NCBI GenBank assembly: GCA_937120965.1
Contig: CAKZKA010000267.1
Coordinates: 1,556 to 65,555 of the forward strand
Direction: 5' to 3'
Origin: an uncultured Chloroflexota bacterium
GTDB taxonomy: Bacteria > Chloroflexota > Chloroflexia > Chloroflexales > Chloroflexaceae
Length of the DNA stretch: 64,000 bases
A model generated the notes under the pieces. It ran no database searches, had not been told where the DNA came from, and saw only the letters and a list, made by a program, of their open reading frames with translations. Positions 980-61,040 of this stretch are shown piece after piece (positions within the stretch are counted from its first letter, which is position 1; every line of letters begins with the position of its first letter). The translations under genes and the position numbers were made by a program.

Positions 980-1981
980 ATGCTTACACCTGGCGACGTC
1001 AAGCGCGCCTTACAACATTATGACCTCGGAACGGTCCGCTCAGTGCGTCCAGCATCGCATGGCGTGGTCAACGAAACCGCATTCGTGGAAACGAGCAGCG
1101 GGCGCTACGTGGTGCGTCGCAACCAGCGGGCCACGGGGTGGGGCAGGCTCGAACTGCGGCACCAGTTGCTGAACTGGCTGCGCCTTCGGGCCTTTCCCAG
1201 CCCGCGCCTGATCCCCGCGCGCAATGGCGACAACGCCGTTGAAGTAGACGGCCGCGTCTTCGAGGTCTTCACCTTTATTGACGGCGACGAGTTCAATATC
1301 GACCGCCCGGCGCACATCAGCGGCACGGGCAGCATCCTCGCCCGCTACCACCGCACTGTCGAAGACTTCCCCTACCTGCCGCCGCCCGAAGCGCCACGCT
1401 ATAATCCCGGTTCGCTCCTCGGCCTGATCGAACGCCTGATGCAGCGCGACCTGATGGGCGAACTCTCCGAACCCCTGAACTGGTACGACCGCCGCGCTGC
1501 CCATCTGCGCGCGGTGCTGCCCACCGAGGCCTACAGCGCGCTGCCACACGTGCTCATTCACGGCGATATGCACCGTGATAATGTCATCTTCCGCGGCGAC
1601 ACTGTGGCCGCCCTGATCGACTTCGACCAGGTGACGGTAGATGCTCGCATCGTTGACCTGGCCGACGCCCTGGTGGATTTTACCGTCGGCGCCACTCCGC
1701 CCGACTGGTTCCCCTGGGGCGTGTACGCCGGCCCGCTCGACCAGCAGCGCGCTGCGTTGCTGCTGGAAGGCTATCATACCATCGCGCCGCTAACCAGCGC
1801 TGAGTGCAAGGCCCTGCCCGTGCTCGTCGAAGTGATCTGGCTCCAGGGCAACCTGCGCCGGGTGCTCGGCACCGCCGACGCCGAACCCGACTACCACCTC
1901 GAAGTGCTTCAGCAAGGTCGCCGGCTGTCCCTGTGGCTCCAGGAGCATCCCGACGTCCTTGCGGTCGAGGGGCAAGCCTGA
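980..1981 (+). CDS. Phosphotransferase family protein (APH / homoserine kinase type II-like)
   Basis: In-frame ATG at 980 preceded by GAGGAG. LIHGDMHRDNVIF and LIDFDQ match the HxDxxxxN catalytic and DFD metal-binding motifs. The first 110 codons of track ORF 650..1981 lie in repeat DNA. Confidence 0.7.
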   Translation: MLTPGDVKRALQHYDLGTVRSVRPASHGVVNETAFVETSSGRYVVRRNQRATGWGRLELRHQLLNWLRLRAFPSPRLIPARNGDNAVEVDGRVFEVFTFIDGDEFNIDRPAHISGTGSILARYHRTVEDFPYLPPPEAPRYNPGSLLGLIERLMQRDLMGELSEPLNWYDRRAAHLRAVLPTEAYSALPHVLIHGDMHRDNVIFRGDTVAALIDFDQVTVDARIVDLADALVDFTVGATPPDWFPWGVYAGPLDQQRAALLLEGYHTIAPLTSAECKALPVLVEVIWLQGNLRRVLGTADAEPDYHLEVLQQGRRLSLWLQEHPDVLAVEGQA

Positions 1982-2227
1982 TGTGAACATAGCCCGCCCA
2001 CGGGAGGCTTTGGGAGGGCGCAGTCCTCCCAGGAAACAACCCGCGCGCGGGGAGGGTTTGGGAGGGCACAGCTCTCCCAGGAAACAACCCGCCCGCGGGA
2101 GGGTTTGGGAGGGCACAGCCCTCCCAGGAAACAACCCGCCCGCGGGGAGGGTTTGGGAGGGCGCAGCCCTCCCAGGAAACAACCCGCCCGCGGGGAGGGT
2201 TTGGGAGGGCGCAGCCCTCCCGGAAAC
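1979..2227 (+). repeat. Terminal motif TGATGTGAACAT followed by five tandem 47-48-bp G4/hairpin (H) units
   Basis: Units start at 2002, 2050, 2097, 2145 and 2193. Each reads GGGAGGGTTTGGGAGGGC-N4-CCCTCCCAGGAAACAACCCGCCCGCG. Confidence 0.9.
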
Positions 2228-2263
2228 GTCTTTTACCTCTCCCGTCAACGAGGAGCAGTACCT

Positions 2264-6054: not shown

Positions 6055-6300
6055 GGGGGAACCCGGTTCCCCCATGTCCCAACCGCTATTGGGAGCGGCT
6101 GGCGCCCCAGCCTGCAGGGGCGCGGTTCGACAAGCTCACCACAGGTGGGGAAACCCGGTTTCCCCGATGTTCACCTCAGCCGTCCATGCGGCTGCGCCGC
6201 ACAACGACAAAATGGGTTTTTCTTGGGAGGGCGTAGAGGCGCGGCGCTGCCGCGCCTCTACGCCCAAACCCTCCCGCGCGGCCTATTTTCACATCAGGAG
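6055..6300 (-). repeat. Composite repeat block
   Basis: Palindrome variant at 6055-6073. CCAACCGCT..AGCGGCTGG hairpin. GCGGTTCGACAAGCTCACCACAGGT. Perfect palindrome at 6148-6166. ATGTTCACCTCAG. TCCATGCGGCTGCGCCGCACAACG. A 17-bp-stem hairpin at 6229-6265. ATTTTCACATCAG. Confidence 0.85.
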
Positions 6301-12503: not shown

Positions 12504-12610
12504 GTGTTCACTCCTGGGGTAAGGCGTCACCCCGGGTGCGCGGGCGTCCCGCCCGCAATGGCCTGGATGCGGGTAAGATGCCCGCGTACCCCGGAGAAGT
12601 GTGAACACGT
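12504..12610 (+). repeat. R1 element copy 2
   Basis: Nearly identical to copy 1 over about 100 nt, with the same GTGTTCAC...GTGTGAACAC ends. Confidence 0.75.
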
Positions 12611-12829
12611 GCGTGCAGCGCTGCGGTGCCCCCCGCCCCCCACTCCAGTGAACCCGTTCCCATCCCGGGCATTCTACTCTCTTCGGTCTCCGCAGGCAGT
12701 AGCCCTTCGGTCCTGTTCGCAGGGGGTAGCCAGCCTGCTGCCCCCTGCCCATCGAGGCGCCAGGCGCCCCCATCACCGGTTGGGGGATGCGGCTGCTGGA
12801 TTGGCGCGCCTCCCCGGAAGAGTCAAGCA

Positions 12830-13185
12830 CACCATTCGCATTCGTTTATTCGTTTCCCATTCGTTGGCGTATTTCGTTTCCCCTGAGGTGAAAATATGGG
12901 GAAATCGGGTTTCCCCACCCCCCTCCCTGCGGGGAGGCGCCCGGTTCCCTCCCCCAGCGGGGGAGGGCCAGGGAGGGGGCGGCCCTCCCGAAGACGCCCT
13001 ATGTTCATCGCGGCGTTGTGCGCCATGCGTATGACCGTCTAAGATGAAAACGGGTTTTTCTCAGGAGGGCGTAGAGGCGCGGCGCCGCCGCGCCTCTACG
13101 CCCAAACCCTCCCGCGCGCGGGCTATGTTCACGCTGGACGCCCATGCGCGGGGCGCACAACGCCAGCATGCAACCGTGGGAGGGC
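12830..13185 (+). repeat. Composite repeat block
   Basis: ACGAAT-rich module at 12830-12867. CTGAGGTGAAAAT. Palindrome at 12898-12916. About 110-bp module GGCGCCCGGTTCCCTCCCCCAGCGGGGGAGGGCCAGGGAGGGGGCGGCCCTCCC...CGGCGTTGTGCGCC. A 17-bp-stem hairpin at 13067-13103. ATGTTCAC. Confidence 0.85.
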
Positions 13186-13188
13186 TAA

Positions 13189-13290
13189 TACCAATTACCG
13201 TTGATGATACCGCATTGCTTGAAGCGGTTTTAGGCGTTATGCTGCCCAGCGTGGCAATCCACAATCCAAAATCCAAAATCTAAAATGGTA
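13189..13290 (-). mobile_element. 102-bp MITE, subfamily A, flanked by a TAA/TAA duplication
   Basis: Ends TACCAATT...AAAATGGTA. TSD TAA at 13186-13188 and 13291-13293. It is inserted in the loop of a GGGAGGGGG/GCCCTCCC repeat hairpin. Confidence 0.8.
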
Positions 13291-17165: not shown

Positions 17166-17183
17166 GCGACGCTGGATGATTGA

Positions 17184-17285
17184 TACCATTTCAGATTGTA
17201 GATTTTGGATTGCAGATTGTCGCGCAAGGCGTCCAGGTACGCTTTGACGCAACGCTGCTTGCGGAGTGTTCAAGTGAAATTGGTA
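17184..17285 (+). mobile_element. 102-bp MITE, subfamily B, flanked by a TGA/TGA duplication
   Basis: Ends TACCATTT...AAATTGGTA. TSD TGA at 17181-17183 and 17286-17288. Confidence 0.8.
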
Positions 17286-17451
17286 TGACGCCTCTGCGTC
17301 TCCACAGCGTGCCTGACCGTATTGTCATCTACCGCGAGCCAGCGGCCCAACACGTTCCTGCGCTCAACATGGCTCAGCCCGGCGCACCGTGAGCGGGCCA
17401 GACAGGCGGAGTCCAGTGATGCCAGATTATCATATCGTTATCTGATACAAC

Positions 17452-25046: not shown

Positions 25047-25730
25047 ATGTTGCTTGAGACACACAGGGCCGAAATCGAGACCATTCTCTCACGCTACGAC
25101 TCGCGGCGCAGCGCGGTGCTGCCGCTGCTCTACCTGGCGCAAGACACCTACGGTTACCTGACGGAGGCGGCCATTCGCGAGGTTGCCGCCATCCTTGGCC
25201 TGCCGCCCACCGATGTCTTTGAAGTGGTTGGCTTCTACACTCTGTTCTACAACCGCCCCGTGGGCACGTGGGTGCTCCAGGTCTGCGACGATGTGCCCTG
25301 CTGTTACCTCGGCGCCGAGGAACTGATCAGTGCGCTCAAGCAGAGCCTGGGGATCGCCGAGGAGCAGACCACCAGTGACGGGATGTTCACCCTCCAGCGT
25401 GTCAAGTGCCTGGCCGCCTGTGACCGGGCGCCGGTGCTCCAGGCTAATCTCGATTATGTCTACGATGTGACGCCGGAGCGGGTCAACGCGCTGCTGACGA
25501 ACCTGCGCGCCCGCGCCGCCGAGGCCCGCCAGCGGGGCGTGAGCGGGCGCTTCGCCGAGGACTTCGAGTGGGGACCTGACGGCGCCCTGACCCTGATCGA
25601 CCGCGCCGCGCCCTACCGGCCCCGCCAGTTTCCCGCGGCAAGCCCGCCCGCCCCGCTAGAGCCGGAACCCGTGCCCGAAGCCGATGCTGGCCACGACCGG
25701 CCCACGGACCGCAAGGCGTCGCCGCTCTGA
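25047..25730 (+). CDS. nuoE: NADH-quinone oxidoreductase subunit E
   Basis: Thioredoxin-like 2Fe-2S subunit: VCDDVPCCYLGAEEL...KCLAACDRAP. It has a Pro/Ala-rich C-terminal tail. The stop TGA is embedded in the CTGAGGTGAAC repeat motif. Confidence 0.85.
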   Translation: MLLETHRAEIETILSRYDSRRSAVLPLLYLAQDTYGYLTEAAIREVAAILGLPPTDVFEVVGFYTLFYNRPVGTWVLQVCDDVPCCYLGAEELISALKQSLGIAEEQTTSDGMFTLQRVKCLAACDRAPVLQANLDYVYDVTPERVNALLTNLRARAAEARQRGVSGRFAEDFEWGPDGALTLIDRAAPYRPRQFPAASPPAPLEPEPVPEADAGHDRPTDRKASPL

Positions 25731-25815
25731 GGTGAACCTGTGGGGAAACCGGGTTTCCCCACGCCCCTCCCTGAGGGAAGGGTTTGGGAGGGCGCAGCCC
25801 TCCCCACAAACGACT
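25728..25815 (+). repeat. Terminal motif, perfect palindrome and H unit in the nuoE-nuoF spacer
   Basis: CTGAGGTGAACCTGT, GGGGAAACCGGGTTTCCCC (25742-25760), GGGAAGGGTTTGGGAGGGCGCAGCCCTCCCC. Confidence 0.85.
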
Positions 25816-35127: not shown

Positions 35128-35131
<4 letters not shown>

Positions 35132-35625
35132 GGTGAACATAGCCCGCCCGCGGGAGGGTTTGGGAGGGCAAAGCCCTCCCAGGAAACAACCCGCCAGCGG
35201 GGAGGGTTTGGGAGGGCGAAGCCCTTCAACGGGTTTCACCTGCTCCGGGATAGGCTTCCTGGGACGCAGAGGGGAGATGGGCCAACGAATGGGAAACGAA
35301 TAAACGAATGCGAGCGGCGTGTCTGACTCTGAGGTGAACATAGCCCACCCACGGGAGGGTTTGGGAGGGCGAATTCCTCCCAGGAACCAACCCGCCAGCG
35401 GGGAAGGTTTGGGAGGGCGAATTCCTCCCAGGAACCAACCCGCCAGCGGGGAAGGTTTGGGAGGGCGAAGCCCTCCCAAGAACAATACTATGTTCATTCT
35501 GGCGTTGTGCGGCACAGCCGCATGGACGGATGATGTGAACATACGGGGAAACCGGGTTTCCCCACCTGCGGTGAGCCTGTCGAACCGCACCCCTGCCAGT
35601 GGGGAGGGTTTGCGAGGGCGCAGTC
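35128..35625 (+). repeat. About 500 bp of repeats filling the nuoL-nuoM spacer
   Basis: Two CTGAGGTGAACATAGCCC heads (35128, 35329). Five H units, two with a GAATTC loop. ACGAAT-rich module at 35282-35313. GGCGTTGTGCGGCACAGCCGCATGG module. Perfect palindrome at 35545-35563. CTGCGGTGAGCCTGTCGAACCGC module. One degenerate H unit. Confidence 0.9.
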
Positions 35626-35686
35626 CGGCCCGTAAACCCCTCTCGTCACGACTGACCGACGGCGTGCCGTTACAAGAGGTTGCTCT

Positions 35687-37371: not shown

Positions 37372-37482
37372 TACCATTGCGACCATCTACGATTTTAGAT
37401 TTTGGATTGTGGATTGCCACGCTGGGCAGCGCAACGCCTGAAACCGCTTCAAGCAATGCGGTATCATCAACGGTAATTGATA
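37372..37482 (+). mobile_element. Degenerate MITE copy, subfamily A (111 bp), between nuoM and nuoN
   Basis: TACCATTGCG...GATTTTAGATTTTGGATTGTGGATTGCCACGCTGGGCAGC...GGTAATTGATA. The ends are mutated and no TSD is recognisable. It ends 20 nt before the nuoN ATG. Confidence 0.65.
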
Positions 37483-37502
37483 TCACACAGGGAACTGAGC
37501 GT

Positions 37503-44964: not shown

Positions 44965-45461
44965 CCGAGGTAAAAATAGGGGAAACCGGGTTTCCCCAGG
45001 CCCCTGCCTGGAGGGGCGCCAGCCGCTCCCACCAGCGGTTGGGAAATGGGGAAACCGGGTTTCCCCACCTGTGGTGAGCTTGCCGAACCACGCCCCTCCC
45101 TGCGGGGAGGCGCCCGGTTCCCTCCCCCAGCGGGGGAGGGCCAGGGAGGGGGCGACCCTCCCAGAGATACCCCTGGTTTCATCGCGGCGTTGTGCGCTCC
45201 GCGCATGGGCGTCTAAGTGAAAATAGGTGGGGAAACCGGGTTTCCCCAGGCCCCTGCCCGGGGGCGGATTTGCACGCTTCTCGCCACGGGGGCAGGGGCA
45301 ACCCCCTCGCCCCACGCCCCTCCTGGCAGGAAGGGTCCGAGCGGGTGTAGCGTGCTCAGGCCCTCCCGTTCAAGAACGCACGGGATGCCGAGGTGCGGAG
45401 ATGAAGGCCATGGTGGGATGCGCAACAGGGGCGTGGTACAGCCGGGATTCCCGTATGTTCA
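44965..45461 (+). repeat. Composite repeat block between the CHAD and CYTH genes
   Basis: Perfect palindromes at 44979-44997, 45048-45066 and 45229-45247. AGCCGCTCCCACCAGCGGTTGG hairpin. GGTGAGCTTGCCGAACC module. About 110-bp GGGGGAGGG module. Degenerate palindrome plus TATGTTCAG at the CYTH stop. Confidence 0.85.
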
Positions 45462-46065: not shown

Positions 46066-46692
46066 TTGTTCGCGGAAACCGGGGTTTCCCGTACTACTCC
46101 CTGCCCGGCGGGAGGGTTGCGAGCGTTCTGTCCTCTTCCAGCCCTCTGCTGGGGGAATGCGCCTGACTCCCTCTCCAGGCGGGGGAGGGTCCGGGAAGGC
46201 GAAGCCCTCCCAGGAGAATCGCTCTTCAGTCATCCATGCGGCTGCGCCGCACAACGACAAGATGAACATGGATTTTTCCTGGGAGGGCGCAGCCCTCCCA
46301 AACCCTCCCCGCTGGCGGGTTGGTTCCTGGGAGGGCTGCGCCCTCTCAAGCCCTCCCGCGGGCAGGCTATTTTCACCTCAGGCACCATTCGCGGGGCGCA
46401 CAACGCCGCGATGACCATAGGGCGTCTTCGGAAGGGCCGCCCCCTCCCTGGCCCTCCCCCGCTGGGGGAGGGAACCGGGCGCCTCCCCGCAGGGAGGGGA
46501 TTGGGGAAACCTGGGTTCCCCGTATGTTCACCTCAGGCGGTCATGCGCATGGCGCACAACGCCGCGATGACCATGGGGCGTCTTTGGGAGGGCCGCCCCC
46601 TCCCTGGCCCTCCCCCGCTAGGGGAGGGAACCGGCCTCCTCCCCGCAGGCAGGGGAATGGGGAAACCCGGTTTCCCCGTATTTTCACCTCAG
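46066..46692 (-). repeat. Composite repeat block including two tandem ~156-bp units
   Basis: Degenerate palindrome at 46072-46090 and two reverse-oriented H units at 46270-46360. Tandem units at 46381-46535 and 46536-46692 each consist of the GGGGGAGGG module, a palindrome (46503-46521 and 46659-46677) and (T)ATGTTCACCTCAG. Confidence 0.85.
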
Positions 46693-48874: not shown

Positions 48875-49089
48875 GTGTTCACATTTGGGGTAATACCATT
48901 TTGGATTTTAGATTTTGGATTGTGGATTGCCACGCTGGGCAGCACAACGCCTGAAATCGCTTCAGGCAATGCGGCATCATCAACGGTAATTGGTATAAGG
49001 CGTCAACCCGGGTGCGCGGGCGTCCCGCCTGCAATGGCCTGGAATGCGGGCAAGATGCCCGCGCTCCCAGGAGAAGTGTGAATACGTAC
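48875..49089 (+). repeat. R1 element copy 3, interrupted by a MITE
   Basis: Left part is 48875-48893 and right part 48996-49089. They are collinear with copies 1 and 2 once the 102-bp insertion is removed. Confidence 0.8.
48894..48995 (+). mobile_element. 102-bp MITE, subfamily A, flanked by TAA/TAA, nested inside the R1 element
   Basis: TSD TAA at 48891-48893 and 48996-48998. Removing the element plus one TAA restores GGGGTAAGGCGTCA, the sequence seen in uninterrupted R1 copies at 566-579 and 12517-12530. Confidence 0.85.
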
Positions 49090-49099
49090 ATGTGGAGCC

Positions 49100-49330: not shown

Positions 49331-50824
49331 ATGCTTATTCGTCTGGCAATCGCCTGGATGCTGGGGATCGTCATTGCCGAGCAGGCCCGCCCCCCAACGG
49401 GCTGGCTGTGGGCTGCGGCGGGGGTGGGGCTGGTCATGGCGCTGGCCGTCCGGGGTCAGCAGCGAGGCACACTACGCCTGGCGGCCCTCGCGCTGCTGTG
49501 CGCGGCTCTGGGCGGGCTACGCTACATGGGCACGCTGCCGGCCCTGGGGCCGCAGAGCGTGAGCAGCCTGAGCGGGCGGGGCGAGGTCGTGCTCACGGGC
49601 AGCGTGGCCGGCGAGCCACGCCGCAGTGAGGAGCAGCAGCGCGTGGTGCTCCAGGTCGAGACGGCCACGGTAGAGGGAGCGACCGCGGCCTACGAGGGGC
49701 TGGTGCTGGTGGTATTACCGCCCTACCCTGCCTATGCCTACGGCGATCGGCTCGAGGTTCGGGGCGCGTTGCGCCGTCCGCGGGGCGCAGAGCGGCCCGG
49801 CGAGTTCGATTACCGGGCCTACCTGGCCCATCGCGGCATCTTTGTGATGATGACCAAACCCGAAGAGGCGCGCCGGCTGACGGGCCAGGACGGTCTGGCG
49901 CCCTTGCGGGCCGTGCTTGCCTTTCGCGCTCATTGCCAGGCGGTGCTGCTGCGCACCTTGCCCGAACCCCAGGCCGCCCTGGCAATCGGGGTCGTTCTTG
50001 GCATTCAGTCAAGCATCCCCGACGAAGTGTACCGAACCTTTTCGATCACCGGTACGAGCCATATCCTGGTAGTATCGGGATGGAACTTCACGATTGTGGC
50101 GGGGATGCTGGGAGCGCTGGCGGCACGCCTGCGCCTGGGGCGAGGGGCAACCCTGGCGCTGGCGCTGGCGGTGATGTGGGTCTATGCCGTGTTTACCGGC
50201 GCCTCGGCGGCGGTGCTACGGGCGGCAGCCATGGCCAGCCTGGCCGCCGTGGCCCGCGCCACCGACCGCAGCAGCGAGCCGTGGCATCTGCTCCTCGGCG
50301 CGTGCTGGCTGATCACTCTGGCAGACCCACACACGCTCTGGGACCCGGGGTTCCAGCTCTCGGCGCTGGCAACGGCCAGCCTCTTCGCCTACGCCACGCC
50401 GGTGGCGGCGTGGTTTAACCGGCGGCCCTTCAACTGGCCGATGATGGCTCCGGTCACAGAGGCACTGGTGGCAACATTCGCTGCCCAGGCGCTCACCCTG
50501 CCGCTGATCTTATACGCCTTTGGCAACCTCTCGCTGGTGGCGCCACTGGCGAATATCGTGATCGTGCCGGTGGTGCCATTCGCTATGGCTCTGGGCGCAC
50601 TGGCGCTGGTAGGCGGCCTGATCTGGCTCCCGTTGGGGCAGTGGCTGGCCCTGGGGGCATGGCTGCCCTTCACCTGGATCGCCGAGGGGGCGCGCCTTCT
50701 GGCCATGCCACGCTGGGCCAGCGCGCAGGTGCCACCATTCCCGCTGTGGCTGCTCCTGGGTTGCTATGCCGCCATCGGGCTGCACTGGTGGAGCAGGCTA
50801 CGCACCGCGGGAGAGAGCGCCTGA
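49331..50824 (+). CDS. comEC: ComEC/Rec2-family DNA internalisation channel protein (no beta-lactamase domain)
   Basis: ATG at 49331 after GGAGGGAG. Polytopic membrane protein. FSITGTSHILVVSGWNFTIV resembles the competence-domain motif. The stop TGA is embedded in CTGAGGTGAACAT. Confidence 0.7.
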   Translation: MLIRLAIAWMLGIVIAEQARPPTGWLWAAAGVGLVMALAVRGQQRGTLRLAALALLCAALGGLRYMGTLPALGPQSVSSLSGRGEVVLTGSVAGEPRRSEEQQRVVLQVETATVEGATAAYEGLVLVVLPPYPAYAYGDRLEVRGALRRPRGAERPGEFDYRAYLAHRGIFVMMTKPEEARRLTGQDGLAPLRAVLAFRAHCQAVLLRTLPEPQAALAIGVVLGIQSSIPDEVYRTFSITGTSHILVVSGWNFTIVAGMLGALAARLRLGRGATLALALAVMWVYAVFTGASAAVLRAAAMASLAAVARATDRSSEPWHLLLGACWLITLADPHTLWDPGFQLSALATASLFAYATPVAAWFNRRPFNWPMMAPVTEALVATFAAQALTLPLILYAFGNLSLVAPLANIVIVPVVPFAMALGALALVGGLIWLPLGQWLALGAWLPFTWIAEGARLLAMPRWASAQVPPFPLWLLLGCYAAIGLHWWSRLRTAGESA

Positions 50825-51165
50825 GGTGAACATACGGGGAAACCAGGTTTCCCCATCCCCCTCCCCGAGGGGAGGGTTTGGGAGGGCTTCGCCCTCCCGA
50901 GAATAATTATTTTCATTCCGGCGTTGTGCGGCGCAGCCGCATGTGAGGTGAACATACGGGGAAACCGGGTTTCCCCATCCCCCTCCCTGCGGGGAGGGTT
51001 TGGGAGGGCTTCGCCCTCCCGAGAATAATTATTTTCATTCCGGCGTTGTGCGGCGCAGCCGCATGGATGACTGAGGTGAACATAGGGGGAAACCGGGTTT
51101 CCCCATACCCCCGCCCACGGGAACGTGAACATATGGGGCAACCGGGTTTCCCCTCGCCCCCTCCC
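50821..51165 (+). repeat. Tandem composite units (periods 122 and 128 bp) downstream of comEC
   Basis: GGTGAACAT heads at 50825, 50947, 51075 and 51125. Palindromes at 50836-50854, 50958-50976, 51086-51104 and 51135-51153. The first two units are near-identical through GGGAGGGCTTCGCCCTCCCGAGAATAATTATTTTCATTCCGGCGTTGTGCGGCGCAGCCGCATG. Confidence 0.9.
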
Positions 51166-51230: not shown

Positions 51231-51776
51231 ATGACGAACGCGATCGATCTTACGCCATTGATCCAGGCCATTCACGCGGCGCCCCAACGCCTGGTGTATG
51301 TTTTCGCCGGAGCAGGGAGCCTGGCGCTGCACTGGCTTCACGCCGTCGCCGGCTCGTCGCGCACGCTGCTCGAGGCCCGCGATTGCTACGCGCCCCGCAG
51401 CCTGGCGGTCGTCCTTGGTGCGCCCCCGGCCCGTGCTGTCAGCGTCGAGACGGCCAGCGCAATGGCCGATTGGGCCTGGAAGTATGCCGCCAGCCTGGCC
51501 GAAGGCCCCTGGCCGCTGCTCGGGGTGGGTTGCACCGCGGCGATCGTCACCGACCGGGCGCGCCGGGGCGCCGATCGGGCGGTGGTCGCCGTGCGCTCGG
51601 CCAGCGCTACGCGGATCTATGAGCTGCTCCTCGCCAGGGAGCGCCGCGACCGGGCCGGCGAAGAGGCGCTGATCAGTCGCCTGGTCGTCCTGGCGATCGC
51701 CGAAGCATGCGGTCTGGGAGCAGTGCATCTGGACCTGGAGCCGGGTGAGGCGCTGCATCTGGCGGGGATGGGCTGA
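51231..51776 (+). CDS. Hypothetical protein, distant CinA/PncC-like pattern
   Basis: AGSSRTLL...AVSVETASAMA...GVGCTAAIVTDRARRG loosely follows the CinA C-terminal domain pattern. The start is uncertain (ATG 51231 or GTG 51198). The stop TGA is embedded in CTGAGGTGAACA. Confidence 0.4.
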   Translation: MTNAIDLTPLIQAIHAAPQRLVYVFAGAGSLALHWLHAVAGSSRTLLEARDCYAPRSLAVVLGAPPARAVSVETASAMADWAWKYAASLAEGPWPLLGVGCTAAIVTDRARRGADRAVVAVRSASATRIYELLLARERRDRAGEEALISRLVVLAIAEACGLGAVHLDLEPGEALHLAGMG

Positions 51777-52719: not shown

Positions 52720-52794
52720 GGGCCTGGAGGGTATCGGTTGCACCACGAAGGCACGAAGATCGTGCGGATGGGCGGCGCGGACGTTTCCCTGTAA

Positions 52795-52896
52795 TACCAT
52801 TTTAGATTTTAGATTTTGGATTGTGGATTGCCACGCTGGGCAGCACAACGCTTAAAACCGCTTCAAGCAATGCGGCATTATCAACGGTAATTGGTG
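52795..52896 (+). mobile_element. 102-bp MITE, subfamily A, flanked by TAA/TAA
   Basis: TSD TAA at 52792-52794 and 52897-52899. The last TIR base is mutated (AATTGGTG). It lies between the convergent nth and GPH transporter genes. Confidence 0.8.
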
Positions 52897-52928
52897 TAAG
52901 TCAATGCTGCTTTTTCGCCTCCAGGTTG

Positions 52929-54553: not shown

Positions 54554-55558
54554 TGTACTGCTACAATATGTTAGCGCACCTCTGGTGGGTGTATTGACTG
54601 AATGTTGTGTGCAGGTGATCAATGCATTATCACCCAAAAGCGGCGTTGACCCAGGTGCAACGCGCGCGAATCCAACAATTGTATCGTGAAGGAATGAGCC
54701 AATCCGCCCTGGCGCGTCAGTTTGGCGTGCATCGCCGCACCATCCAGCGTTGGGTTGGCCGGACGGATACCACGGATCGCTCTGGTGGACCGCGCACCCA
54801 TGGGCGGCGCGTGGTGACGGAGACGTATCGCCAGGCCGTGATTGCCGAACGGCAGGCGCATCCGCAGGATGGTCCCAAACGGATTGCGCACGAACTCCGG
54901 GCGCGCTTCCCCACGGCCAATACGGCAACCGTGTGGCGCATCCTGAAGGACGCCGGCTTGACGCAGCGCCCGCCCAAAAAAACGGCAGCGGCGTCCGATC
55001 CCGGTCGGACGCCATCGGGTGCAACTGGACATCCGGGAATTGCCAGCGATTCGCGGGGGTCATGGGCGGGAATACCAGATCAGCCTGATTCATCTGCGCA
55101 CCCGGATGAAGTACTCGGAAATCCATCCACGCGCCACCAGTCACCGGATTGCCGGAGTGCTGCAGCGGGCGATCGGCCGATTGCCCCCGTTTCATCTGGT
55201 GGTGACGGATAATGCGATGGTCTTTACCATGGCGCATACCCCGCATCCGGAGCGGCGTACGGCGTTCGAACGCACCATCACGGCCCTGGGCGTGCGGCAT
55301 TGGCGGATCAAACCGCGATCGCCGTGGCAAAACGGGATCATTGAACGGAGCAATCGGACGGATAATGCGGAATGTTTCCATCAGCAGGAGTTCTCCTGTT
55401 CCGAACATCGTCGGTATGTGCATCGGTTATGGGAGATGTACTACAACGATCACCGGCCACATCAAGGGCTTGATGGCGCCACACCGTTGGCGATCTTCCG
55501 TCGGTACTATCCGATCCATGCCGCTGCCATGGGTGCGCTAACATAGTGAAGCAGTACA
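54554..55558 (+). mobile_element. IS481-family insertion sequence (1005 bp) with 26-bp IRs and a 6-bp target-site duplication
   Basis: IRL TGTACTGCTACAATATGTTAGCGCAC (54554-54579) matches the reverse complement of IRR (55533-55558) at 24 of 26 positions. Perfect direct repeat GGTATC at 54548-54553 and 55559-55564. It encodes an HTH plus rve DDE transposase. Confidence 0.8.
54622..55546 (+). CDS. IS481-family DDE transposase, split over two frames at an A7 run (54976-54982)
   Basis: Frame 1 gives the HTH part (GMSQSALARQFGVHRRTIQRW). Frame 2 is open from 54962 and reads PKKRQRRPIPVGRHRVQLDIRELP...VVTDNAMVF...WQNGIIERSNRT (D, D, E). The frames join if one A is removed from CCCAAAAAAACGG. Confidence 0.75.
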
Positions 55559-55604: not shown

Positions 55605-55811
55605 GCATCGCCACGGGGCGGTGGGGCGCGCCGGGGTGGCGCGGGGGCGACCGCGGCATTGCCGCGGGGCGGCGGGGCGCGGGGGCAACGGCGGGGCGTG
55701 CAGCATTGCCGCGGGGCGGCGGGGCGCGGGGGCGACGGCGGGGGTCAGGCCGAAGCATTCGCGTGGGCGGCCAGGGTGGCCCCGATGGGGGTGGGCGCGA
55801 ATGCTTCGGCC
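55605..55811 (+). repeat. G-rich tandem repeat (periods 51 and 47 bp) followed by a 16-bp-stem hairpin
   Basis: GCATTGCCGCGGGGCGGCGGGGCGCGGGGGC units start at 55605, 55656 and 55703. GGCCGAAGCATTCGCG (55748-55763) pairs with CGCGAATGCTTCGGCC (55796-55811). Confidence 0.8.
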
Positions 55812-58295: not shown

Positions 58296-58600
58296 CCTGA
58301 GGTGAAAATAGCCCGCGCGCGGGAGGGTTCGGGGTGCCGGGGGGGGCGGGGTTGGCCCCCGCCCCAAATAGCCCGCGTGCGGGAGGGTTCGGGAGGGCGA
58401 GGCCCTCCCAGGAAACAACCCGCCAGCGGGGAGGGTTTGGGAGAGCTTCGCCCTCCCAAGAATAGGTATTTTCATTCCGGCGTTGTGCGGCGCAGCCGCA
58501 TGGATGACTGAGGTGAACATACGGGGAAACCGGGTTTCCTCAACCCCCTCCCTGAGGGGAGGGTTTGGGAGGGCTTCGCCCTCCCAAAAACAAACCTGTT
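58296..58600 (+). repeat. Composite repeat block between the PQQ-like gene and eutC
   Basis: CTGAGGTGAAAATAGCCC head. Three H-type units. GGCGTTGTGCGGCGCAGCCGCATGGATGA. CTGAGGTGAACATAC. Palindrome at 58523-58540. One more H unit. Confidence 0.85.
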
Positions 58601-58609
58601 TTCATCTCG

Positions 58610-59395
58610 TTAATCGAGCAGGGCAGCCGCGCCATCACGCTCGGCTCGCTCATCCTTCAGCGCGACGCCGCTCAGTTTGAGCCGTCGCGCTTCGCTCATC
58701 AGATAGATCAGGGTCTGGGCGGCGGCATCGTAACTCTGACCGCGGGCATGGATGTTGGAAATGCAGTTGCGTTCGGCATCGGTGCGCCCGGGGCGCGGAT
58801 CGTAGGTGAGATACACTCCCAGGCTATCGGCGACGCTCAGACCCGGGCGTTCACCGATCAGGATAGCAGCCTGCCGGGCGCGAAGCAGGCTCCCGATCTC
58901 GTCGGCGATGGCCACACGGCCCTGATGCACCACGACAATCGGCGCCAGGCGCCAGCCCAGGCCCTGCAGGGCTCCGGCTACACGGGTGGCAAGGGGCACG
59001 GCGTGGCGGTGCACTGCGAGGGCCGAGAGACCGTCGGCGATGACCAGGACGGCGTCGTAGGCGTCCCCGTCGGCGGGGGCGTGGGGAGGAAGGGCCGCCC
59101 GCGACGCCTCGCTCAGACGCCGGCCCAGGTCGGGGCGCTTCAGATAGGTTGACCGGTCAGGGGCGGCGCTGTGAACGATCAGCACGGGCAGATCGGTAGC
59201 GGCTGCGGCGGCGGCCACGCCTGCGGCGTCAAAGGGCAGATGTACGGCGTCACGGGCGCGGGCGTGGTCGTACTGAAAGGCCAGTTGGGCAGCGGTGGGC
59301 AGGCTATCGCCGGCCCGCCCCAGGGCGATGCGGGCGTTGGTGTAGCGGCGCAACCCCTGCCACAGGTCGGCAGAGGGTAGTGTTTCGTCAGACAC
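58610..59395 (-). CDS. eutC: Ethanolamine ammonia-lyase light subunit
   Basis: GTG at 59395 lies 6 nt after GAGGAGG. TNARIALGRAGDSLPT, LKRPDLGRRL, IGERPGLSVADSLGVYLTY, ERNCISNI. Confidence 0.85.
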   Translation of the reverse strand: MSDETLPSADLWQGLRRYTNARIALGRAGDSLPTAAQLAFQYDHARARDAVHLPFDAAGVAAAAAATDLPVLIVHSAAPDRSTYLKRPDLGRRLSEASRAALPPHAPADGDAYDAVLVIADGLSALAVHRHAVPLATRVAGALQGLGWRLAPIVVVHQGRVAIADEIGSLLRARQAAILIGERPGLSVADSLGVYLTYDPRPGRTDAERNCISNIHARGQSYDAAAQTLIYLMSEARRLKLSGVALKDERAERDGAAALLD

Positions 59396-59439
59396 AGGGA
59401 ACCTCCTCGGCGAGAGGCGCCATTCGTGGAACGTACAAC

Positions 59440-59645
59440 ACCTCCCCACAGGCAGGGGCGTGAGGAAACCCGGTTTCCCCCTATGTTCACCTCAGTCATC
59501 CATGCGGCTGCGCCGCACAATGCCAGAATGAAAATATTTGTTCTTGGGAGGGCTTCGCCCTCCCAAACCCTCCCCGCTGGCGGGTTGTTTCCTGGGAGGG
59601 CGAAGCCCTCCCAAACCCTCCCGTACACGGCCTATTTTCACATCA
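59440..59645 (-). repeat. Composite repeat exactly filling the eutB-eutC spacer
   Basis: Palindrome at 59462-59480. TATGTTCACCTCAG. TCATCCATGCGGCTGCGCCGCACAATGCC. Two reverse H units. CTATTTTCACATCAG, whose TCA is the complement of the eutB stop. Confidence 0.9.
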
Positions 59646-61040
59646 GACACGCGCGCTGGCGAGCCGAGCCACTTCCCGGAGCAGGCGAGGCTGCTCACGC
59701 GGAGCCAGGCGTCCATCAGGCTCGATGATACCCATCGCGATAAGCCAGGCTTCAAACTCCGGGGCGGGTCGCAGGCCCAGGGTGGTTTGCACGAAGCGCA
59801 CATCGTGGTACGAGGTGCTCTGGTAGTTGAGCATCACATCATCGGCGCCGGGCACGCCCATAATGTACGCGCAGCCGGCCACTCCCAACAGTACCAGGAG
59901 GTTGTCCATATCGTTCTGGTCGGCTTCGGCGTGGTTCGTGTAGCAGGCATCGCAACCCATCGGCACACCCATCAGGCGACCGCAGAAGAGATCTTCGAGC
60001 GCGGCGCGGATGATCTGCTTGCCATCGTAGAGGTATTCAGGGCCAATGAAACCAACCACGGTGTTGACCAGCAGCGGCTCAAAGTGGCGAGCCACCGCGT
60101 AGGCGCGGGCCTCACAGGTTTGCTGGTCAACACCATGATGAGCATTGGCCGAAAGGGCGCTGCCCTGACCGGTTTCAAAATACATCACGTTATCGCCGAT
60201 GGTGCCGCGCCCCAGGGCCAGCGCGGCGGCGCGCGCCTCGCGCAACAGGGCCAGATCGATCCCGAATGAGCGGTTGGCAGCTTCGGTGCCGGCAATTGAC
60301 TGGAAGACCAGGTCCACCGGGGCATGGCGTTCGATAGCCGTAATCTGGGTGGTGACGTGGGCCAGTAATGAGGACTGGACAGGGATGGCGTAGCGCTGGC
60401 GCAGGTCATCAATCAGCTCAAGCAGGGCTATCACGGCCTGCGGGCTATCGGTAGCGGGATTGATGCCGATCACCGCATCGCCGCAGCCGTGGAGCAGGCC
60501 GTCGAGGATCGAAGCGGCGATGCCGCGGGGATCGTCAGTGGGATGGTTGGGCTGGATGCGCGACGAGAAGCGCCCGGGCAGCCCGATCGTCGTGCGAAAG
60601 CGCGTCACCACACGGCACTTGCGGCTGATAGCCACCAGATCCTGGTTGCGCATGATCTTCGACACCGCAGCGGCCATCTCGGGCGTGATGCCGGGGGCCA
60701 GGGCGGCCAGAGCTGTATCGTCGGTCGCATAGGACAGCAGCCATTCGCGGAAAGCGCCCACGGTGAGGCTGCTGACGGGGGCAAAGGCAGCGCGATCGTG
60801 GGTGTCAAGGATCAAGCGCGTCACTTCGTCGTCCTCGTAGGGGATCAGCGGTTCCTCGAGGAAGGTGGTCAGCGGCACATCGGCCAGGCACAGTTGGGCA
60901 GCAACCCGTTCTTCGGCGCTCTCGGCAGCCAGACCGGCGAGCTGGTCGCCTGAGCGTTCAGGAGTGGCCTTTGCCATGAGCGTCTTGAGATCGTCGAACT
61001 GGTAGGTGCGTCCGCCGAGAGTTCGGGTGTAGGGCGCCAT
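59643..61040 (-). CDS. eutB: Ethanolamine ammonia-lyase heavy subunit
   Basis: MAPYTRTLGGRTYQFDDLKTLMAKATPERSGDQLAG is the typical EutB N-terminus. 465 aa. The stop TGA is embedded in the repeat motif CTGATGTGAAAAT. Confidence 0.9.
   Translation of the reverse strand: MAPYTRTLGGRTYQFDDLKTLMAKATPERSGDQLAGLAAESAEERVAAQLCLADVPLTTFLEEPLIPYEDDEVTRLILDTHDRAAFAPVSSLTVGAFREWLLSYATDDTALAALAPGITPEMAAAVSKIMRNQDLVAISRKCRVVTRFRTTIGLPGRFSSRIQPNHPTDDPRGIAASILDGLLHGCGDAVIGINPATDSPQAVIALLELIDDLRQRYAIPVQSSLLAHVTTQITAIERHAPVDLVFQSIAGTEAANRSFGIDLALLREARAAALALGRGTIGDNVMYFETGQGSALSANAHHGVDQQTCEARAYAVARHFEPLLVNTVVGFIGPEYLYDGKQIIRAALEDLFCGRLMGVPMGCDACYTNHAEADQNDMDNLLVLLGVAGCAYIMGVPGADDVMLNYQSTSYHDVRFVQTTLGLRPAPEFEAWLIAMGIIEPDGRLAPREQPRLLREVARLASARV

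Follow-up and report, generated by a model that had tools for sequence, protein, structure and literature searches.

The stretch of DNA considered here (hereafter the window) comprises 64,000 nucleotides of contig CAKZKA010000267.1 from an uncultured bacterium of the Chloroflexaceae. Its genes are ordinary chromosomal ones, including those for an APH-family kinase, an M16 peptidase, the nuo operon, two acetyl-CoA synthetases, comEC and eutBC, and the homologs of its NuoM that bear organism names belong to the Chloroflexales and Chloroflexaceae. At the end of the APH kinase gene lies a tandem array of a 48-bp unit, in which an earlier note on this DNA had seen a guanine-quadruplex (G4) motif coupled to a competing hairpin. 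Our analysis indicates that this unit is probably the core palindromic module of a family of lineage-restricted, non-coding, non-autonomous mosaic repeats of an uncultured Chloroflexaceae bacterium, with a behavior like that of repetitive extragenic palindromes (REPs), bacterial interspersed mosaic elements (BIMEs) and miniature transposable elements with inverted repeats (MITEs). The focal array is made up as follows.

1979..1991, plus strand: start box TGATGTGAACATA, which fits CTGA(G/T)GTGAA(C/A)ATA; its TGA doubles as the stop of the APH-family kinase gene upstream
1992..2001, plus strand: linker GCCCGCCCAC, a degenerate C-heptamer for which pairing with the first G-heptamer is possible
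2002..2221, plus strand: five tandem units, starting at 2002, 2050, 2097, 2145 and 2193
2012-2030, 2060-2078, 2107-2125, 2155-2173 and 2203-2221, plus strand: the hairpins of the array
2228..2240, plus strand: GTCTTTTACCTCT, a possible degenerate right inverted repeat (cf. TATTTTCACCTCA), the likeness being judged by eye

Tandem Repeats Finder (TRF) places the array at 1993-2227 with a period of 48, 5.0 copies and 93% matches, in agreement with the five copies of an approximately 48-bp unit described before, and the G-rich cores start at spacings of 48, 47, 48 and 48. The kinase gene (Pfam APH) is a 469-codon open frame that terminates at the start-box TGA, and TGAACATA within this box forms the element's left inverted repeat. 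Each unit reads GGGAGGG-TTT-GGGAGGG-C-N3-G-CCCTCCC followed by the linker AGGAAACAACCCGCCCGCG, which the last unit lacks, and its hairpin, GGGAGGG-C-N3-G-CCCTCCC, has an 8-bp stem and a 3-nt loop. The unit had been written as GGGAGGGC-N4-GCCCTCCC with a 7-bp stem and a 4-5-nt loop; the hairpin with the downstream CCCTCCC is real, but neither these dimensions nor the pattern hold, as the pattern has 0 matches in the window and the true form is C-N3-G. In unit 1 (2002) a G-tract is broken (GGGAGGC), leaving a perfect G4 motif in four of the five units, and both unit 1 and unit 2 have a C>T substitution in the C-arm that makes one G:C pair a G:T mismatch. The 17-mer of the unit, GGGAGGGTTTGGGAGGG, conforms to the G3-N1-G3-N3-G3-N1-G3 consensus and is dispersed, as had been claimed, with 13 exact copies in the window and 27 at up to two mismatches (shuffled sequences give 0.01, and 0 of 100 reach 27). 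The copies at 25776 and 58381 each have a single mismatch to the 17-mer; the remaining positions listed previously for perfect G4 motifs are correct within 1-3 nt. The heptamer GGGAGGG and its complement occur 59 + 53 = 112 times in the window, nearly always between genes, and all of the 27 unit cores in these 64 kb are intergenic.

Several other assignments of the array were rejected. In a CRISPR array unique spacers would separate the constant repeats, whereas here the whole 48 bp is 93% conserved and the 3-nt loop alone varies. Open reading frames (ORFs) do cross the array, but a coding function is countered by the one unit of 47 bp, by the start of the downstream gene at the ATG at 2264, which is conserved in all relatives, and by codon bias, which calls no gene at this place. 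The hairpins do not have the anatomy of intrinsic terminators, in which a U-tract comes directly after a GC hairpin at the end of a transcription unit, as they are followed by AGGAAACAA and the elements sit inside nuo and eutBC, a location that makes strong termination unlikely; the last hairpin with GTCTTTTACCTCT is the sole terminator-like site of the array and has a weak score. An uptake sequence was rejected on anatomy. Across the whole window no match to Rfam 15 was obtained at gathering thresholds (best sub-threshold match 25.5 bits, against a threshold of 45), and the sub-threshold matches are chance-level hairpin matches.

Reading of all repeat-bearing spacers together with motif mapping yielded a grammar of which the focal unit is one part. 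An element begins with the start box CTGA(G/T)GTGAA(C/A)ATA, found 23 times in the window, and continues with either GCCCGCCCRC or one to two palindromes GGGGAAACCSGGTTTCCCC and then CCCTCCC-N4. The core, GGGAGGG-N3-GGGAGGG-C-N3-G-CCCTCCC, comes next and, taken with the C-heptamer before it, makes a "twin-hairpin" core, of which an element has one or more; in arrays, it is followed by the linker AGGAAACAACCCGCC and additional cores. The right side is formed by TAT(G/T)TTCAT (e.g., TATGTTCAT), an inverted copy of the start-box TGAACATA, and by a short GC tail hairpin GGCGTTGTGCGGCGCAGCCGCATG, often with the next start box directly after it. This order of start box, palindrome, core, linker and tail recurs, resulting in mosaic clusters with a small set of conserved linkers. 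The terminal inverted repeats TGAACATA ... TATGTTCA bound most of the 26 candidates (72-326 bp) that were extracted from several organisms; the longest ones span two elements or coding sequence, and the smallest complete element measures 72 bp (L017:5341). The same grammar, with species-specific linkers, recurs in the related species and on four other metagenome contigs.

Elements are located immediately 3' of genes, 0-35 nt past stop codons and often exactly at them. For 6 of the 23 start boxes the TGA is itself the stop of a real gene of 215-660 codons (APH, nuoE, nuoL, comEC, eutB and an unnamed gene ending at 51776), and in 20 of the 23 the TGA is preceded by C. The C-termini of NuoE (...SPL), NuoL (...FTR) and CYTH are unchanged between species with and without the element, which argues for insertion exactly at or after the native stop; the APH protein falls 12 residues short of its counterpart in the lineage whose site is empty. 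In non-redundant co-directional spacers, 20 clusters lie in sense and 7 in antisense orientation (binomial p = 0.019). Operons have been entered repeatedly, with elements filling the nuoE-F, nuoF-G, nuoL-M and nuoM-N gaps and that between eutB and eutC. In the window the nuo gaps span 100-560 bp, and in the 92%-identical relative 145-564 bp. Four relatives without the family were sampled: in three of them the gaps are 7-210 bp long, mostly <90, and the fourth, the Chloroflexus-like locus L040, has two long unrelated nuo gaps of 585 and 362 bp. The sign of the GC skew follows the gene strand in the window, so that no origin can be placed and no replication-strand bias can be read.

The start boxes, such as that at 35129-35141, contain GAGGTGA, a 7-nt sequence to which the canonical 16S rRNA 3' tail is perfectly complementary (the window itself has no 16S gene), and GGGAGGG contains GGAGG. 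Sense transcripts would carry strong Shine-Dalgarno-like sequences at and just past stop codons.

Comparison of orthologous spacers demonstrates colonization of new sites between species and a tandem gain and loss of units from strain to strain. GCA_036733005.1, a metagenome-assembled genome (MAG), and a JGI metagenome both have an identical NuoM, with DNA that is 100% identical; in the nearest other species the NuoM is 92% and the DNA ~90% identical (loci L002-L007 and L026-L035), and more distant relatives were sampled as L008-L011 and L036-L040. The spacer between the APH gene and ORF170 is 283 bp long in the window, with five sense units, but only 12 bp and free of repeats in one relative; the ~90% relative has a spacer of 384 bp that holds different modules in antisense, and one of its strains lacks a 62-bp unit. 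The nuoL-nuoM gap likewise differs among four lineages (556, 207, 118 and 46 bp), so that both of these spacers provide filled and empty orthologous sites, as seen for MITEs. Among strains with identical NuoM, the CYTH/Ppx spacer is 200, 410, 500 or 594 bp long through gain or loss of whole units, and a 94-bp unit is present in 1, 2 or 3 copies across these strains (3.3 copies by TRF in the largest array, L003); another metagenome contains a 49-bp array of 7.8 copies. The between-strain differences in unit number that the earlier note had raised were thus found for sister arrays in strains of a related species, and not for the focal array, which is unchanged in a 99.93%-identical strain.

No member of the family is present in the ~21 kb sampled from each of three others, namely Chloroploca, an OHK40-like MAG and one MAG of Chloroflexus-like type, whereas the nuoE-nuoF gap of L008, whose NuoM is 84% identical to that of the window, has a single copy of a core-like unit. 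Collection scans were performed with GGGAGGGC-N4-GCCCTCCC, a pattern one base longer than the true hairpin, and the distribution of the main form can therefore not be read from their result: 1 genome (Neogemmobacter, a look-alike with a 6-nt gap), 0 viral sequences and 11 metagenome stretches. Six metagenome loci from these scans nonetheless carried the family. Single occurrences of GGGAGGG-N3-GGGAGGGC-N4-GCCCTCCC, with the other modules absent, were seen in unrelated organisms (L001, L013, L014, L015, L018 and L022), the L001 look-alike being Neogemmobacter tilapiae NZ_BMYJ01000006.1:5629-5658.

Contigs of the host and its relatives tend to end in repeat-filled spacers (L024, i.e., DAINBJ010000165.1, as well as L010 and L035), and L024 ends 320 bp upstream of nuoM. 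Given the quick turnover of the repeats between near-identical strains, MAG contigs are expected to break in such spacers, and the family likely causes assembly breaks in these MAGs.

The other elements of the family in the window show the same modules in different combinations.

6225..6275, minus strand: variant unit with a GTAG-tagged REP-type stem, C-GTAGAGGCGCGGC-N3-GCCGCGCCTCTAC-G, in its hairpin; a second copy lies at 13063-13113
25728..25804, plus strand: single element in the nuoE-nuoF gap, composed of a start box (its TGA is the nuoE stop), the palindrome GGGGAAACCGGGTTTCCCC and CCCTCCC-TGAG-GGAAGGG-TTT-GGGAGGG-CGCAG-CCCTCCC
35129..35630, plus strand: repeat cluster that fills the nuoL-nuoM gap, with start boxes at 35129, 35330 and 35531, 2 + 3 tandem units, TATGTTCAT as right repeat, GGCGTTGTGCGGCACAGCCGCATG as tail hairpin, a single palindrome and, at 35602, a decayed unit
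46281..46380, minus strand: two-unit element ending in a start box (46368-46380), sense to the minus-strand genes on both sides
50822..51065, plus strand: two 122-bp elements of the long type, each with start box, palindrome, CCCTCCC-N4-GGGAGGG-TTT-GGGAGGG-CTTCG-CCCTCCC, TATTTTCAT and tail hairpin; comEC ends at the first TGA
58298..58605, plus strand: composite cluster of start box, 2-3 units, tail, start box, palindrome and unit, antisense to the flanking minus-strand genes
59546..59645, minus strand: two-unit element between eutB and eutC, with the start-box TGA (59643-59645) as the eutB stop

In the nuoL-nuoM cluster, the count of five units given earlier for 35150-35480 is correct, but they do not form a single array, the 2 + 3 units being split by ~105 bp and a second start box. 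The genes eutB and eutC (58610-61040), which are normally adjacent, are kept apart by a repeat cluster of ~190 bp. A separate module, the perfect palindrome GGGGAAACC(G/C)GGTTTCCCC, is even more numerous than the unit, with >30 sites in the window (e.g., 666-684, 6147-6165, 25742-25760, 44979-44997 and 50958-50976); it mostly lies 1-2 nt past a start box, but solitary copies occur too.

Copies from the window and from seven non-redundant loci were compared with the hairpin as the sole anchor (~84 hairpins). A third heptamer is present on one side in ~66 of the ~84, and the gap between the direct heptamers is always 3 nt, which places them in 10-bp phase, while its sequence varies (TTT, TCT, CCA, CCT, TTG or TTC). 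Four intact G-tracts are found in 45 of the ~66 oriented copies; in the other 21, about a third, a tract is broken. Substitutions are spread about equally over heptamers 1, 2 and 3, so that there is no sign of G4-specific selection, and C>T in the C-arm is about as frequent as G>A in the G-arm, so that there is no sign of an RNA-strand-specific constraint. In one orientation the loop triplets form complementary pairs (GCA/TGC, TTC/GAA and GTA/TAC), a signature of loop inversion in extruded hairpins.

These data bear directly on the proposal that the unit is a functional switch, in which a three-tetrad parallel G4 interconverts with a hairpin in single-stranded DNA or mRNA and adjusts transcription, translation, replication or recombination in the vicinity of gene ends. 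The chemistry of the motif agrees with it: the 17-mer is a perfect motif with 1-3-1 loops and a G4Hunter score of 2.12 (only 0.31 for the entire 48-mer, when scored as the earlier note had suggested), and its last two G-tracts double as the 5' arm of a perfect hairpin. The window contains 34 canonical G4 motifs (four tracts of at least three G, loops N1-7), against 10.1 +/- 3.2 in first-order Markov simulations; the 48-bp-type unit contributes 20 of the 34 (59%), all intergenic, and so triples the count. Of the 27 co-directional clusters, 20 have the G-rich strand in sense. A dispersed motif of this kind is not as unusual as had been supposed, since a "G-quadruplex-hairpin-duplex switch" has been demonstrated by circular dichroism for dispersed E. 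coli motifs in intergenic DNA (Kaplan et al. 2016, PMC5100583). Folding models that include a G4 term (ViennaRNA) prefer the G4 for the isolated 29-mer at 37 C (-22.8 vs -17.0 kcal/mol for the hairpin), and for the 48-mer at this temperature the probability of G4 formation, P(G4), is 0.94 in one phasing and 0.05 in the other. In every full unit, however, the first two G-tracts face an upstream CCCTCCC or CCCGCCC with which they are predicted to form a second hairpin, so that all four tracts would be paired in the native context. Two adjacent hairpins are predicted for either strand of the 48-mer folded as single-stranded DNA (z = -2.8 and -3.3), with the linker CCCGCCC pairing with G-heptamer 1 and CCCTCCC with G-heptamer 2, and four for the 122-bp element (z = -4.4 to -4.5). 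According to these predicted folds the G4 motif joins the 3' arm of the first hairpin to the 5' arm of the second. For two units or the core of the long element P(G4) is <= 0.001 at 37 C, and for all constructs it is <= ~0.01 at 55 C (highest for the isolated 29-mer) and ~0 at 70 C. In context, the models thus predict twin hairpins rather than a G4, and less weight falls on the G4/hairpin reading than the earlier note gave it, though a generic G4 energy model built for RNA is not decisive on this point. As the tract is broken in 21 of the ~66 oriented copies, with the three heptamers about equally affected, and as G4 folding needs no fixed length of the inter-heptamer spacer, which is always 3 nt, we regard a G4 switch as very unlikely.

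Selection by the host for a cis-acting RNA element would attribute the stem-loops to stabilization of mRNA at 3' ends or between cistrons, to attenuation, or to ribosome stalling beside stop codons as for E. coli REPs, with mobility as a secondary property. Such a role would suit the sense bias, the position 0-35 nt past stops, the presence in several nuo gaps and the core-like unit in the same nuoE-nuoF gap of L008, as well as the predicted RNA fold, in which G-U pairs join the start box to the right end on the sense strand only; REPs are reported to stabilize mRNA, terminate transcription and regulate translation (PMC6006769). Nevertheless, orthologous spacers in close relatives hold different modules, opposite orientations or nothing, which implies that no particular site requires the element. 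Together with the equal frequencies of C>T and G>A in the two arms and the lack of an Rfam family match, this makes host selection an unlikely origin. The heptamers might also act irrespective of secondary structure, as an array of GGGAGGG in 10-bp phase, once inverted, that is bound by the recombinase of the element or by a nucleoid protein. The 112 largely intergenic heptamers, the equal conservation of all three, the invariant 3-nt spacing of the direct pair despite its variable spacer sequence, and the loop-less perfect palindrome GGGGAAACCSGGTTTCCCC, which resembles the site of a dimeric protein, would all be accommodated; but no candidate protein emerged, and the loop inversion and perfect complementarity of the arms suggest extruded hairpins, so that we give this idea little credence. 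It is compatible with the mosaic-repeat reading if the bound protein is a transposase.

The modular anatomy, the extragenic position next to stops, the orientation bias, the invasion of operons, the rapid gain and loss, and the tandem variation all argue for a new family of the REP/BIME/MITE kind, a context of the unit that the earlier note had missed. As for the REPs and BIMEs of Enterobacteria and Pseudomonas, which are associated with REP-associated tyrosine transposases (RAYT/TnpA-REP), its units are short GC-rich perfect hairpins (8-bp stem and 3-nt loop here, within the 7-20 bp and 2-5 nt of REPs) that occur in many extragenic copies just 3' of genes and within operons, in mosaic clusters of palindromes with conserved linkers. 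Its sequence is also species-specific, and its termini give stop codons, as REP termini can for flanking ORFs (PMC3733652). In contrast to these elements, it has no RAYT gene that we could find in the 520 kb searched and no GT[AG]G at the foot of the hairpin; its units are direct tandem or twin-hairpin rather than inverted as in REPIN doublets; and it has a third heptamer in 10-bp phase and a bounding 8-bp inverted repeat. With the bacterial MITEs (Correia/NEMIS, RUP, ERIC) it shares a size of 70-300 bp, lack of coding capacity, terminal inverted repeats, strong structure, presence/absence polymorphism at orthologous sites and entry into operons with altered gene 3' ends; unlike in MITEs, the interior is itself modular and tandemly amplified, and neither a target-site duplication nor a parent insertion sequence (IS) sharing its ends was observed. 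The E. coli motifs HPG1 and HPG2 are similarly dispersed between tandem or convergent genes, with a C-rich tract beside the G4 consensus (PMC5100583), but differ in sequence and organism; the motif described here lies within a mobile, tandemly amplified element, and its G4 is a modeled one. Single-strand transposons of the IS200/IS605 type and their palindrome-only derivatives resemble the family in their subterminal hairpins, a conserved tetranucleotide (here CTGA) at the left boundary, the apparent lack of a target duplication and the orientation bias, and head-to-tail arrays would be expected were the right end to finish in CTGA as well; on the other hand, the family has terminal inverted repeats, and no Y1 gene was found in the 520 kb searched. 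Class 3 Y1 HUH genes are flanked by hairpins with CnGA at their foot (PMC6006769), whereas the CTGA of the family lies 10 nt from the nearest hairpin, which makes the likeness only a lead.

Several observations weigh against a REP/BIME/MITE-like family as the explanation. Searches of the window and all loci (520 kb) by tblastn with IS200 TnpA and YafM gave nothing below E = 0.8, a weak test on part of the genome, and comparison of the flanks by eye revealed no consistent target-site duplication; the TGA ahead of the box could belong to the target or to the element. The GT[AG]G tetranucleotide that lies 0-2 nt 5' of the hairpin foot in canonical REPs (PMC6006769) is absent from the foot of the core hairpin, which is flanked by GGGAGGGTTT and TTTCCT on opposite strands. 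The strict 3-nt spacing of the heptamers is not accounted for by selfish spread alone. The 7:20 minority of antisense clusters, and the clusters in divergent spacers, signify that placement is not strictly bound to gene ends, and outside the tool-annotated loci the placement counts rest on a simple codon-bias gene caller. Finally, the effect on mRNA that most likely follows from the hairpins is drawn by analogy with REPs.

In the window, GTAG was found only at the nested hairpins 6233 and 13071, that is, a canonical GTAG hairpin exists only as a separate insert in two units, and a second, canonical REP-like family seems to have been inserted into the first or to have replaced its tip. A search for an IS bounded by the inverted repeats of the family gave only ordinary genes (CYTH, eutC) flanked by elements, and the one IS of the window was rejected as a parent because its ends differ. 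This IS (54622-55546) consists of two overlapping ORFs, a helix-turn-helix (HTH) domain followed by an rve/rve_3 integrase core, probably joined by a frameshift, and adjoins a G-rich run (55614-55731) with a period of ~8 bp and three further G4 motifs. We found no description of this repeat family in Chloroflexi in the literature.

If the repeats are indeed mosaic elements of this kind, a trans-acting enzyme would insert them beside CTGA, and insertion right after a TGA stop would be tolerated because the gene stays intact. Arrays may then lengthen and shorten through slippage or unequal recombination between units. In transcripts the hairpins would most likely act in a REP-like manner, as 3'-end and intercistronic stem-loops that affect mRNA decay and decouple neighboring genes without being strong terminators. 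The G4 motif is most likely incidental, a by-product of two G-rich arms of one stem sequence that lie 3 nt apart. A more specific scenario, which we put forward as speculative and rather unlikely, is that an unrecognized single-strand recombinase (HUH/Y1-like or other) inserts precisely 3' of CTGA, hence its preference for sense sites behind TGA stops, and reads the triple-heptamer core as a twin hairpin, a G4 or a purine triplex. If true, this would amount to a REP-like system in which the tag and the core architecture are new and stop codons are targeted, from a phylum that has no characterized one.

The window contains other repeats as well. A structured repeat of ~110 bp (GGGGTAAGGCGTCACCCC...GGGCGTCCCGCCC...GCGGGCAAGATGCCCGC...GGGAGAAGTGTGAAC), without a match in Rfam, is located at 553-667, 12504-12618 and 48990-49095, and also occurs once in a genus-level relative (L008:18905-19044). 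Another dispersed family, at 17180-17289, 37377-37486, 48890-48999 and 52791-52900, contains 7-bp microsatellites (13256-13286, 48898-48928 and 52799-52829; AATCCAA / ATTTTGG, ~4.4 copies).

Should the mosaic-repeat reading hold, the G4 motifs at these loci would be passengers of a repeat family rather than regulatory signals, and the fact that one repeat yields 59% of the motifs in the window calls for caution in genome-wide G4 surveys of GC-rich bacteria. It would also illustrate the extent to which essential operons are open to invasion by small structured repeats, with four nuo gaps and that between eutB and eutC filled. The exact contact with stop codons may help to reveal the mechanism by which REP-like elements insert beyond the Proteobacteria.

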